A DNA stretch of 64,000 nucleotides from positions 2,238-66,237 of the forward strand of contig JAQCEL010000001.1 in assembly GCA_027618655.1 (NCBI GenBank). Direction: 5' to 3'. Within the stretch, counting starts at the first letter, position 1. Every line of letters starts with the position of its first letter. The notes under the pieces were generated by a model. It ran no database searches and had not been told where the DNA came from. It worked only from the letters and a program-made list of their open reading frames with translations. Shown in pieces: positions 38,178 through 55,595 of the stretch. Both the position numbers and the translations under genes were made by a program. The stretch is from Pseudomonadota bacterium (GTDB lineage: Bacteria; Pseudomonadota; Gammaproteobacteria; Ga0077536).

Positions 38178-38196
38178 TTGGCACGGGATGTGCTTA
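38178..38196 (+). promoter_or_regulatory. candidate sigma-54 (-24/-12) promoter for pilA
   Basis: The sequence cTGGCACgggatgTGCTt fits TGGCAC-N5-TTGCW with one mismatch. It lies ~115 bp upstream of the pilA ATG and downstream of the activator gene pilR. Confidence 0.5.
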
Positions 38197-38311
38197 TAGA
38201 AAACCAACGCGCTGCCGGAAGTTTCGAAAGCGCCCAACAGAAGCTGGCAGACGCTAGAAAAGATTTTAAACGTCCTAGCAAATTATTTGTAACTCTCAGG
38301 AGAATGAGAAA

Positions 38312-38740
38312 ATGAAAAAAGTCCAACAAGGTTTCACACTAATCGAACTTATGATCGTGGTCGCGATCATCGGTATCTTGGCCGCAGTCGCCATCCCCGC
38401 ATATCAGGATTACACGATCCGCGCCAAGGTGACAGAAGGTCTGGGTCTTGCAAGTGCTGGTAAAACGGCGGTGTCGGAATTCTTCGCGACCAACGGTGCG
38501 TTGCCAAACTCGAACGCATCCGCGGGTATGGCAACCTCGACAAGCATCTCCGGTAATAACGTCTCGTCGGTTGCTGTTGGCGACCTCGGCGTTCTAACAA
38601 TCACCTACTCTGGATCTGGTGTTTTGAATGGTGCAACCGTGTTGCTGTCACCAGAGACAACCGTTGGCCGAGTGAAATGGAACTGTACTTCAGGCGGATC
38701 TTTAGACGGCCGGTATCGTCCCTCTTCATGCCGGAGCTAG
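38312..38740 (+). CDS. pilA: type IVa major pilin PilA
   Basis: [32 protein letters not shown] is a class III signal peptide with Gly-1/Phe+1/Glu+5. C-terminal disulfide loop (C...C). Ser/Thr-rich central region. Ends in ...PSSCRS. Confidence 0.95.
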
Positions 38741-38788
38741 TAGCGCGACACGACGTAGCATAGTGCTCGTCTAGAGTAAGACCAAGAC

Positions 38789-38826
38789 AAAACGCCTAGG
38801 CCTCCGCCTAGGCGTTTTCATTTAAG
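38789..38826 (+). terminator. rho-independent terminator after pilA
   Basis: Perfect 12-bp stem AAAACGCCTAGG / CCTAGGCGTTTT with a 6-nt loop, followed by a T-rich tail. Confidence 0.8.
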
Positions 38827-53906: not shown

Positions 53907-53908
53907 TT

Positions 53909-54601
53909 GTGTTTCAAATGTCCTCCGATTGTTCTTACCGATACGAACGAAAGTTCCACACGACGTCTTTATTTCGCGAAGATGTCGTAAATATTATTAA
54001 GCTACATCCTGCGAACTTTGCGCTCGCGTATCCGGACCGATACGTCAATAATATTTACTTGGATACGGCGGAGTTCAATTGTTTCAACGATAACGTAGAT
54101 GGCGTTGCGTCTCGACGTAAATACCGAATACGCTGGTATGGAAACACCTTGGGTTTGGTTACAGCGCCGGTTCTTGAGGTAAAAGCGAAAGAAAATCTTG
54201 TCGGAACAAAGGCATCCTTTCCTCTTCCGACATTCAATGTGGATGAGGAATTCACCACAGATTCGCTGCGTAGGATATTCTCGAAAGCACAATTACCAGA
54301 ATTGATCCGCGTTACGCTCGGCGAATATTACCCGGTGTTACTCAATGGTTATCGACGCAAATATTTTGTTTCTTTCGATAATAAAGATGTCACGCATCTT
54401 GACGATAAAATGCACTATCGCGCGATCAAAGGTTGCGGAAATTACTATCTTGGTAAGGCGGTTGATGCGGAATCTGTGATTGTCGAACTAAAATATGGTC
54501 TTGATGGCACGGAAGAGCATAACTCGATCGCGAATTATTTGAACGTTCGAATGACGAAAAGCTCAAAATACGTTTCGGGGATTTTCGAAATCTATGGATG
54601 A
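53909..54601 (+). CDS. VTC-domain (polyphosphate polymerase-like / CYTH triphosphate tunnel) protein
   Basis: 230 aa starting ...YRYERKF, with charged beta-strand repeats. Follows DUF4956 and CotH, as in the recurrent three-gene module. Confidence 0.55.
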   Translation: MFQMSSDCSYRYERKFHTTSLFREDVVNIIKLHPANFALAYPDRYVNNIYLDTAEFNCFNDNVDGVASRRKYRIRWYGNTLGLVTAPVLEVKAKENLVGTKASFPLPTFNVDEEFTTDSLRRIFSKAQLPELIRVTLGEYYPVLLNGYRRKYFVSFDNKDVTHLDDKMHYRAIKGCGNYYLGKAVDAESVIVELKYGLDGTEEHNSIANYLNVRMTKSSKYVSGIFEIYG

Positions 54602-54707
54602 CAGCTCAGCTCGCACAGGCGCGTAGCAATCGCTGCTGTCTGGCAGTGCCAGTTGTCGCTCTTCTAGTCGATCTTTGACAATATTCAAATGTCCGGTGCG
54701 GTTATTT

Positions 54708-55595
54708 TTAATCCTCGCGCTTAACTAAACGACGTTCAAAATCTGCCTCTTTATAATGAAGCGAAGATACCAACTCCGCCAAGATCCCGATCAGGAATGT
54801 GAACAGCGCTGATAGGAACAACAGCGTACTCATATTTGTGAATCGGTGTAGCGTCAAATACGTATATGCGTAGTAGCAAAGGCCACTAGTGAAAAGCAGT
54901 ATGCTGATCGGCAAAAACAGTCGCATGGGTGAGAACAGCGTTCCGATTTTTATTATGACCATAAAGAATCGAGAGCCATCCGCTAGTATCCGAATATGAC
55001 TCGAACCGGCGCGTTGGAGTGCACGGATCGGTACATAGCAAACTGGTAGACCGGAACGAAAAAAGGCCATTGTGCAGGTCGAGGGGTAAGAAAACCCGTT
55101 GGGTAGCAAATAAAGAAAGCGCCGAAAGTGGCGCGCACGTGCTGCGCGAAAACCGGACGTGAGATCATCGATTCGATTGGCCGTTAAGTAGGAGGCCAAG
55201 GTGTTGTAGATCCGATTCGCTAGTTTTCGGCCTACTGACGCATGCGTATCCCATGCGCGAGCGCCAACCGCCATTTCATAGCCTAAGTCGAGTTGCTCTA
55301 GTAGTCGGGGAATGTCTTTCGGATCGTGTTGGCCATCACCATCCATGAAGACGAAGATATCGCCAGTCGCTTGGCGTGCACCAGATTTTATCGCGGCGCC
55401 ATTACCCATTGAATAGGGGTGGCTGACGAGTTTGGCACCGTGTTCGAGAACCACTTGAGCAGTGGAATCGGTGCTGCCGTCGTCCACGACAATGATCTCG
55501 GCGTCCGGATAGGCGGCTTTCAGTTTGGGTAACAATTCGGTCAGACCGGCAGCTTCATTCTTTGCCGGCAAGATTATGCTGAGGGATTCTGACAT
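54708..55595 (-). CDS. polyprenyl-phosphate glycosyltransferase (GT2; GtrB / ArnC / DPM1-like) with C-terminal TM helices
   Basis: LSIILPAKNEAAGL...IIVVDDGSTDST...DGDGQHDP, followed by two C-terminal TM helices. This is the architecture of Und-P-sugar synthases. Confidence 0.7.
   Translation of the reverse strand: MSESLSIILPAKNEAAGLTELLPKLKAAYPDAEIIVVDDGSTDSTAQVVLEHGAKLVSHPYSMGNGAAIKSGARQATGDIFVFMDGDGQHDPKDIPRLLEQLDLGYEMAVGARAWDTHASVGRKLANRIYNTLASYLTANRIDDLTSGFRAARARHFRRFLYLLPNGFSYPSTCTMAFFRSGLPVCYVPIRALQRAGSSHIRILADGSRFFMVIIKIGTLFSPMRLFLPISILLFTSGLCYYAYTYLTLHRFTNMSTLLFLSALFTFLIGILAELVSSLHYKEADFERRLVKRED

Follow-up and report, generated by a model that had tools for sequence, protein, structure and literature searches.

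The window analyzed here is a 64-kb stretch of contig JAQCEL010000001.1, from a gammaproteobacterial metagenome-assembled genome, and this study concerns the 17-kb island that follows its pilA gene, which encodes a major type IV prepilin. The first two island genes, termed ORF4 and ORF5 (ORF, open reading frame), encode predicted membrane glycosyltransferases (GTs) of the GT-C type with a tetratricopeptide repeat (TPR) domain, and the last, GT2b, a putative polyprenyl-phosphate glycosyltransferase. Sequence comparison with related loci indicates that the conserved unit is pilA plus one to three copies of the GT-C(TPR) gene plus GT2b, and that the 12 kb between ORF5 and GT2b is lineage-specific cargo outside this core. 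The best interpretation of the locus is a GT-C pilin glycosyltransferase system that is linked to pilA and is TfpW/TMTC-like by architecture and context. The conserved unit probably forms a periplasmic O-glycosylation system dedicated to pilin, of the type in which a GT-C enzyme works with a lipid-phosphate sugar.

Fold, motifs, and topology of ORF4 and ORF5

Proteins were assigned by profile searches against Pfam and NCBIfam. The domain scan of the window covered the ORFs at 19.9 to 29.9 kb and 34.9 to 60.8 kb, starting at 19.9 kb and ending at 60.8 kb; island ORFs of 80 amino acids or more were scanned, and the intergenic region at 48.7 to 50.7 kb was searched down to 40 amino acids. ORF4, which is 100% identical to the database entry "hypothetical protein O3C28_00180," and ORF5 are paralogues that share 28% identity across 452 residues (E = 1e-43). 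As single sequences, they had no match in Pfam (E ≤ 0.01), NCBIfam, the PDB (phmmer), or PADLOC, and a PDB profile search with their family returned TPR proteins alone. According to the structural models, both proteins have a full GT-C membrane fold combined with a TPR domain, and the structurally nearest enzymes are PMT and ALG12 (paired structural-match values of 17.5 and 18.5 for Pmt4, 15.8 and 17.4 for ALG12, and 15.3 and 17.1 for Pmt2), whereas no TMTC structure was found among the PDB fold-search matches. PMT and ALG12 transfer single sugars from polyprenyl-monophosphate donors, and TMTCs do likewise by published inference.

An alignment of 41 ORF4 homologs (23 to 86% identity) provided the following information. 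(i) The TPR_19 family is present in 37 of the 41 proteins, and the GT-C fold, the motifs, and these repeats support the statement in an earlier note on this DNA that two GT-C-like membrane proteins with TPR domains are encoded here. (ii) Residues D42 D43, R77, K99, H106, R162, K211 E212, E225, R282, D310, E362, and E373 H374 R375 N376 Y377 are invariant in all homologs, as is the R77 P78 pair. (iii) Mapping of the invariant residues onto the model helices predicts 11 transmembrane (TM) segments, a cytoplasmic N terminus, and a periplasmic C-terminal repeat domain. The DD motif is then located in the first periplasmic loop (EL1) and the KE motif in loop 3; loop 4 has HDD, which comes after an amphipathic helix, and loop 5 has E-H-R-N-Y. 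The EL1 motif is of the DDX type and reads FVFDD (D42 D43) in ORF4 and VFDD in ORF5. Since ORF5 retains every acidic and basic motif, both copies look catalytically competent at the level of sequence. (iv) PMT (PF02366) was detected in 2 of the 41 homologs, with a best E value of 7e-4 that was not compared with the gathering score, which amounts to a faint sequence link to PMT; several homologs carry the JGI label "protein O-mannosyl-transferase."

The NCBI model of ORF5 (O3C28_00185, 532 amino acids) begins about 70 codons late (region 41052 to 41262), which cuts off TM1 and the FDD motif. The ORF5 orthologs have 585 amino acids, and the probable start is the ATG at 41076.

A conserved core linked to pilA

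The GT-C family comprises at least 2,940 clusters (90% identity) in a word-indexed search, and 5,040 clusters at 50% identity (E ≤ 1e-30) were obtained with the GT-C domain alone (residues 1 to 430) as the query. A total of 543 family matches were confirmed in GTDB species genomes, and the locus statistics refer to the best 79 of these. The 79 loci belong to Gamma- and Betaproteobacteria, including cultured Undibacterium and Sulfuricella; Lysobacter sp. K5869 was added separately as L085. A number of conclusions can be drawn. (i) In 65 of the 67 loci with enough upstream DNA, the same strand carries, at most 700 nt upstream, an ORF of 130 to 175 amino acids with a prepilin motif (median gap, 127 nt). 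Genes pilS and pilR were found in only 27 to 29 of the 79 loci, and the linkage is therefore to pilA itself. Together with the GT-C plus TPR architecture, this result agrees with the earlier proposal of a pilin glycosylation locus of the kind known 3' of pilA in Pseudomonas aeruginosa. (ii) Of 68 testable loci, 58 contain a GT2b ortholog (55 to 74% identical), and in 51 of the 68 it is the gene directly downstream of the GT-C gene(s). (iii) One GT-C copy is present in 63 loci, two in 15, and three in 1. ORF5-type copies are limited to the nearest relatives, and second copies elsewhere are independent. (iv) The core can be minimal, as in loci L016 (pilSR–pilA–GT-C–GT-C–GT2b–suhB) and L056 (GT-C–GT2b–suhB). 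L083 has the order pilSR–pilA–GT-C–GT-C, followed by GT2b on the minus strand about 550 nt past the second copy and then by a GT4a-like gene, with no suhB match in the locus. The idea that all 17 kb form a single assembly line is not supported in this form, given that only pilA, GT-C, and GT2b are conserved and that these three loci are minimal. Taken together, the pilA–GT-C(TPR)–GT2 cassette appears to occur in hundreds of beta- and gammaproteobacterial species, its linkage having been counted in the best 79 loci, and its GT-C proteins are mostly annotated as "hypothetical" or "TPR protein."

Individual loci showed further features. In the complete genome of Lysobacter sp. K5869 (CP072597.1; L085, 7592 to 14903), pilSR and three tandem pilA genes are followed by one GT-C gene of the family, after which the minus strand encodes an unknown 307-amino-acid protein, a UDP-GlcNAc 2-epimerase-type protein, and GT2b (60% identical), followed by pilBCD. 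Signs of gene turnover were seen in L003 (12090 to 14177), where the second GT-C copy is broken into ORFs of 321 and 364 amino acids, and in L004 (17175 to 21803), where the two GT-C genes are succeeded by fragments of GT4 genes and by transposase genes of the IS66 family.

The pilin gene and its expression signals

The pilin encoded in the window has a type IV prepilin leader and a Ser/Thr-rich alpha-beta loop. The Ser/Thr fraction is 0.28 in residues 54 to 95 of the mature protein, versus 0.14 in the N-terminal helix; this value was not used as evidence, as no control set of unlinked pilins was at hand. The linked pilins (L006 to L084 and the window) share a PilE-like alpha-beta loop motif, N.SAG[MLI]A...SI.G[NK].V, and those of the gamma lineage end in the tail YRPSSCR(S/N/P).

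A sigma54-type element upstream of pilA (Table 1) is the single match to TGGCACN6TGCW in the 64 kb, with 0.2 expected, and its sequence and position fit PilR-dependent transcription of pilA. The pilA terminator named in the earlier note was located by reading and folding, the automatic scan having missed the hairpin; the stem-loop is AAAACGCCUAGGC-CUCC-GCCUAGGCGUUUU, followed by CAUUU. ORF4 starts 160 nt past the pilA stop codon. Terminators that separate pilA from accessory genes are known in other species (PMC11841053).

GT2b as the presumed donor synthase

The closest NCBIfam matches of GT2b are AglJ (7e-33), PpgS (7e-22), a dolichyl phosphate-hexose transferase (3e-19), and ArnC (1e-18), all below the equivalog cutoffs. 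Two C-terminal TM helices are located at about residues 210 to 235 and 258 to 276, and such a C-terminal membrane anchor is typical of polyprenyl-phosphate sugar synthases. The Wzx-like protein of the MOP family that is encoded in the cargo has a close ortholog only in L001/L006 and is conserved in the nearest relative alone. MOP-family flippases for undecaprenyl phosphate-sugars are known, as in the Citrobacter system, and on the basis of this precedent the Wzx-like protein may serve the core here.

Comparison with known glycosyltransferase systems

The most closely related architecture among pilin-modifying enzymes is that of TfpW, the pilin D-arabinofuranosyltransferase of P. aeruginosa Pa5196/PA7, and the comparison was made from its published description. 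TfpW (group IV) has 646 amino acids, 11 TM segments, a TPR domain, and, in loop 1, a DDX motif that is essential; it self-interacts, its gene lies directly 3' of pilA, and it is needed for pilin arabinosylation from a lipid-phosphate donor (10.1101/2020.04.19.049825). The system in the window shares with it (i) the position of the gene, which lies beyond a terminator directly 3' of the gene for the major pilin, with homologs 3' of pilA in other genera; (ii) a size of about 650 amino acids, a cytoplasmic N terminus, 11 TM segments, and, at the C-terminal end, a large TPR domain in the periplasm; and (iii) DDX in the first periplasmic loop and an ArnT-like GT-C fold, TfpW using a polyprenyl-monophosphate sugar. 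It differs in that the donor route involves a GtrB/AglJ-like GT2 enzyme instead of DprE1/DprE2/DPPR synthase, and in having two divergent paralogues, no tfpX, and extra GT, methyltransferase, and Wzx genes. No domains of the D-arabinofuranose donor pathway (DPPR synthase, DprE1, and DprE2) were detected in the scanned ORFs of the window. Likewise, a search for DprE/UbiA genes as a bridge to TfpW in L022, L070, and L082, which lack GT2b, found housekeeping genes only in the scanned downstream ORFs.

The motif set is that of the TMTC proteins. TMTC1 to TMTC4, which are cadherin O-mannosyltransferases, have 11 TM segments plus TPRs and possess the motifs M1 (DD), M2 (SHKSYRPL..SF..N), M4 (KE(T/Q)xxT), M5 (an acidic residue in EL4), and M7 (ERxxY) (PMC7801869). 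Shared features are the C-terminal lumenal or periplasmic TPR domain, DD and (K/Y)RPL..SF..N in EL1, KE(N/T/Q) in EL3, an acidic motif that follows the amphipathic helix of EL4, and E-(x)-R-x-Y in EL5. Residues D42 D43, R77 P78, K211 E212, D310, and E373/R375/Y377 fall at the positions of M1, M2, M4, M5, and M7, respectively (PMC7801869). In the homologs, D42D43, LKRPLAMMSFAVN, K211E212N, and E373-H-R375-N-Y377 are invariant or nearly so, with M2 and M7 matching partly (Table 4/Fig. 2 of PMC7801869). In contrast to the TMTCs, the proteins studied here lack Pfam DUF1736, their EL4 motif is HDD and not DW, and they are encoded in a bacterial host with pilin, not cadherin, as the presumable acceptor.

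Three other groups of enzymes were compared. (i) The PMT proteins (Pmt1/Pmt2 and Pmt4) are linked to the family by the weak PF02366 signal and, by inference, by a protein Ser/Thr acceptor and a polyprenyl phosphate-sugar donor, and the two adjacent paralogues recall the Pmt1/Pmt2 heterodimer. However, in place of a MIR domain, a TPR domain comes after the last TM segment, and sequence identity is only 9 to 13%. (ii) The three-component systems GtrA/GtrB/Gtr and ArnC/ArnEF/ArnT and the pentofuranose systems (Kelly et al. 2024) also combine a GT2 polyprenyl-phosphate synthase bearing C-terminal TM helices with a GT-C enzyme, and the locus has, like the Citrobacter system, a MOP-family transporter that could act as flippase. 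In the locus described here, the acceptor is presumably a protein and not O-antigen or lipid A, GtrA/ArnEF are absent, and the GT-C enzyme bears a TPR domain. (iii) TfpO/PilO, PglL, PglS, and TfpM modify pilin, and some are encoded 3' of pilA. They are transferases of the Wzy_C/O-antigen ligase type that transfer undecaprenyl diphosphate-linked oligosaccharides en bloc, whereas no island protein contains a Wzy_C domain. The cyanobacterial pilin glycosyltransferase Ogt was also considered and is unrelated, since it is a soluble GT41 enzyme. In the literature searched, we found no paper linking TfpW with TMTC and none describing a GtrB-type pilin system.

Gene content and base composition of the island

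The features of the locus are compiled in Table 1.

Table 1. Features of the pilA-linked island and its borders in the 64-kb window
Feature	Position	Strand	Description
pilS	34895-36613		Upstream of pilR
pilR	36615-37955		Sigma54_activat domain in PilR (Pfam)
Sigma54-type -24/-12 element	38179-38194	+	TGGCAC-N5-GTGCT; ~120 nt 5' of pilA, downstream of pilS/pilR
pilA	38312-38740	+	Type IVa major prepilin, 142 aa, presumed acceptor; Pfam Pilin 2e-24, N_methyl 1.6e-10
Intrinsic terminator hairpin	38789-38822	+	3' of pilA; 13-bp GC-rich stem, then UUUUCAUUU (U-tract)
ORF4	38900-40885	+	Predicted 661-aa GT-C glycosyltransferase, 11 TM plus periplasmic TPR domain, TMTC/TfpW-like
ORF5	41076-42860	+	Predicted ~594-aa GT-C paralogue, shorter TPR-like domain; open frame from TTG 41052
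Wzx-like MOP-family flippase	43053-44384	+	443 aa, ~12 TM; Polysacc_synt_3 1.1e-11, Polysacc_synt 7e-9; NCBIfam WZX_like and matE, both weak
SAM-dependent methyltransferase (first)	44381-45301	+	306 aa; Methyltransf_23 2.8e-19; start overlaps Wzx stop
GT2, soluble type	45419-46201	+	260 aa; Glycos_transf_2 2.6e-25; GC 0.415
GT4 (first, GT4a)	46400-47533	+	377 aa; Glyco_trans_1_4 2e-30, Glyco_transf_4 1.7e-16
GT4 (second)	47712-48827	+	371 aa; Glyco_trans_1_4 4e-12
SAM-dependent methyltransferase (second)	49247-49975	+	242 aa; Methyltransf_11 3.9e-21
DUF4956 membrane protein	50605-51294	+	Pfam DUF4956 1.8e-17
CotH-like kinase plus right-handed beta-helix	51291-53906	+	871 aa, N-terminally membrane-anchored; CotH 1.5e-12, Beta_helix
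VTC/polyphosphate-polymerase-like protein	53909-54601	+	VTC 1.8e-19
GT2b	54708-55595	-	Polyprenyl-phosphate glycosyltransferase (GtrB/ArnC/DPM1/AglJ-like), presumed donor synthase; Glycos_transf_2 2.8e-30
suhB, then trmJ	Beyond GT2b	- (suhB)	
aa, amino acids; GC, G+C fraction; SAM, S-adenosylmethionine.

All genes named in the earlier note were found at or close to the positions it gave; its inventory had placed a GT2 gene after wzx, where a methyltransferase gene was found, and had missed the DUF4956–CotH/beta-helix–VTC operon. It was also right in reporting a more AT-rich island, but the difference is modest, with a GC fraction of 0.474 compared with 0.520 in the left and 0.544 in the right flank. 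In 1-kb windows, the values were 0.470 ± 0.028 in the island and 0.524 ± 0.019 outside (Mann-Whitney p = 1e-7). No insertion sequence elements or other mobile-element genes, att-like border repeats, or tRNA genes were found at the island borders. Genes pilD, pilC, and pilB are on the minus strand (22352 to 26395), about 12 kb upstream, beside coaE and zapD, and positions 1 to 15000 of the window contain codirectional ORFs that resemble a dcw (mur/fts) cluster, as judged by size and order only. From the pilBCD/coaE/zapD and dcw-like surroundings we infer that the island sits in the core chromosome.

The cargo between ORF5 and GT2b

The cargo is poorly conserved. Close orthologs of the genes for Wzx, the first methyltransferase, the GT2 enzyme, and the first GT4 enzyme were found only in the 86%-identical relative, and the gene content of that relative diverges from the window after GT4a. 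Even there, the second GT4 has no close ortholog, and the second methyltransferase has a match of only 52%. Homologs of the first GT4 at 38 to 41% identity adjoin the GT2b ortholog in L017, L065, and L083. The DUF4956–CotH–VTC triad (50605 to 54601) is a tightly coupled operon that accounts for 23% of the island, has the lowest GC fraction within it (0.443), and is without homolog in all 84 related loci; it is probably separate cargo. The synteny comparison thus gave a divided answer, with a cargo that is variably present and a core that is kept with pilA across related loci. Horizontal acquisition, as put forward in the earlier note, fits the AT-rich variable cargo but not the GT-C/GT2 core. 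The core keeps its synteny with pilSR-pilA throughout the lineage, where its inheritance seems to have been vertical.

What the cargo contributes can be read in different ways. One reading is that 43053 to 54601 is an unrelated surface-polysaccharide, O-antigen-unit, or exopolysaccharide module that was inserted between the GT-C genes and GT2b, its WecA-type primer and its ligase being unlinked. The lineage-specific, variable content and the lower GC (0.415 to 0.517 per gene, with 0.443 for the CotH block) point in this direction, as does the location of GT2b on the opposite strand next to suhB, as if split off by an insertion or inversion, given that GT2b directly follows GT-C in L016 and L056. 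In addition, a CotH–polyphosphate polymerase–DUF4956 triad has been reported as an accessory set beside Gram-positive Pel exopolysaccharide loci (10.1101/768473). On the other hand, no trace of an insertion was seen in the form of mobile-element genes, tRNA, or flanking repeats, the cargo includes no Wzy, Wzz, or export machinery, and similar GT4 and methyltransferase genes accompany the core in many other species. We therefore treat an independent module as a tentative possibility, with the balance leaning against it.

The second reading, which corresponds to the original proposal, is that the island as a whole is one pilin glycan assembly line, in which GT2b or an unlinked primer starts the lipid-linked glycan, the GT2 and the two GT4 enzymes elongate it, the two methyltransferases add the decoration, flipping is done by Wzx, and a GT-C protein transfers the methylated oligosaccharide en bloc. 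The Haloferax AglJ/AglG/AglP/AglR/AglB pathway follows the same logic, and the top NCBIfam match of GT2b is AglJ, an initiating dolichyl phosphate glycosyltransferase. The genes from ORF4 to the second methyltransferase are all codirectional, with short gaps or overlaps. As the earlier note had stated, no Wzy, Wzz chain-length regulator, or initiating phosphoglycosyltransferase domain was found among the island ORFs (Pfam/NCBIfam, including the small-ORF search), nor was a WaaL/PglL-type or Wzy_C ligase domain, Wzx being the only such component. Similar genes also stand beside the core in other lineages: in 52 loci, the genes most common after GT2b encode GT4 (30 loci), GT2 (16), methyltransferase (14), NAD-epimerase (10), and AsnB-type amidotransferase (6). 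Against these observations, close cargo orthologs are confined to one near relative whose gene set already changes beyond GT4a, some loci have the core and no cargo gene, CotH/VTC/DUF4956 have no known role in glycan assembly, and the region 3' of pilA may be a mere insertion hotspot. Furthermore, the nearest structural neighbors move monosaccharides from polyprenyl-monophosphate donors, and the motif set is that of such transferases. The earlier argument that the lack of a phosphoglycosyltransferase favors block transfer is weak, because initiating phosphoglycosyltransferase genes such as wecA are commonly unlinked, and the structurally closest enzymes move single sugars. A large methylated glycan could be transferred as a block, but this is unsupported, and the assembly line as a whole is unlikely.

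Proposed mechanism

The most economical mechanism for the conserved unit would be a GtrB/ArnC-plus-GT-C system with pilin as the acceptor. Starting from the folds, motifs, topology, paralogy, and gene linkage observed, we infer the acceptor, the donor sugar, the flippase, dimerization, and the role of the cargo as follows. PilS/PilR and sigma54 would drive pilA, and the accessory genes beyond the terminator would be expressed from a read-through fraction or a separate weak promoter. GT2b, held in the membrane by its two C-terminal helices, would act on the cytoplasmic side, using a nucleotide sugar to charge undecaprenyl phosphate with a sugar. The lipid-linked sugar would then be flipped to the periplasmic face, for which the Wzx-like MOP protein may be used here. 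In the 11-TM proteins ORF4 and ORF5, the motifs DD (EL1), KE (EL3), HDD (EL4), and E-x-R-x-Y (EL5) are predicted to face the periplasm, where both proteins would transfer the sugar to Ser/Thr residues of the membrane-anchored pilin, the periplasmic TPR domains docking the pilin head. The two paralogues may serve different sites or donors, or may pair like Pmt1/Pmt2. The 12-kb cargo may extend or methylate the glycan before flipping and is not part of the core.

Several points weigh against a pilin-dedicated system of this type. (i) Neither Pfam DUF1736 nor PMT_2 matched ORF4 or ORF5, and DUF1736 is not among the 25 families listed, of 44 matched, for the alignment of the 41 homologs. (ii) Of the TfpW pattern YX6PFX7P, only the first half is conserved, as an invariant Y293-X6-P300 in EL4 with no PF...P after it, and the full pattern occurs in 0 of 240 homologs. 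(iii) The closest relatives have no GT2b ortholog within 10 kb. (iv) No GtrA-like small membrane ORF, and hence no GtrA-type flippase, was found in the island, and in most related loci a flippase gene is not near. (v) The frequent GT4, GT2, methyltransferase, and epimerase neighbors suggest that the glycan may often exceed a monosaccharide, which fits PMT-type chemistry less neatly. (vi) The functional statements for the loci examined are drawn from fold, motifs, and gene linkage.

It is very improbable that the membrane proteins with TPRs act in pilus assembly or as chaperones (PilF/TfpY-like), or that they are GT-C enzymes for lipopolysaccharide or another acceptor and merely lie beside pilA, because, even if pilin as the acceptor is a deduction and one source calls a homolog "pilus assembly protein PilF," a name that the TPR repeats alone explain, catalytic-type acidic and basic residues are invariant across 23 to 86% identity, the GT-C fold is complete, a donor synthase co-occurs, and the linkage is specific to pilA and not to other pil genes.

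The pilin-dedicated O-glycosylation system can be extended to a broader reading, in which ORF4 and ORF5 would belong to a very large, essentially uncharacterized bacterial family of TMTC-like TPR O-glycosyltransferases for type IV pilin, fed by a GtrB/AglJ-like undecaprenyl phosphate-sugar synthase. In prokaryotes, this family would correspond to the TMTC pathway of eukaryotes and might be its origin, with TfpW as a specialized, arabinose-using offshoot, and in the present locus the paralogues would form a Pmt1/Pmt2-like pair that attaches a methylated oligosaccharide assembled on a monophosphate lipid, in the manner of archaeal Agl-like systems. Taken as a whole, this combination is speculative, and we think it doubtful that all of its parts hold.

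Significance

Pilin glycosylation affects phage susceptibility, immune recognition, and pilus behavior, and the characterized types of pilin glycosyltransferases are few, namely, the ligase-like transferases of the TfpO/PglL type and TfpW. The pilA–GT-C(TPR)–GT2 cassette is widespread and largely unannotated, and it shares active-site motifs with the human TMTC O-mannosyltransferases, for which, according to a 2021 analysis, enzymatic activity had not been directly demonstrated (PMC7801869). The cultured carriers Lysobacter, Undibacterium (U. hunanense CY18W), and Sulfuricella (Sulfuricella sp. T08) make the prediction of pilin glycosylation directly testable, Lysobacter sp. K5869 being a ready experimental model, and these bacteria could provide tractable bacterial models of TMTC-type enzymes as well as tools for O-glycoengineering.

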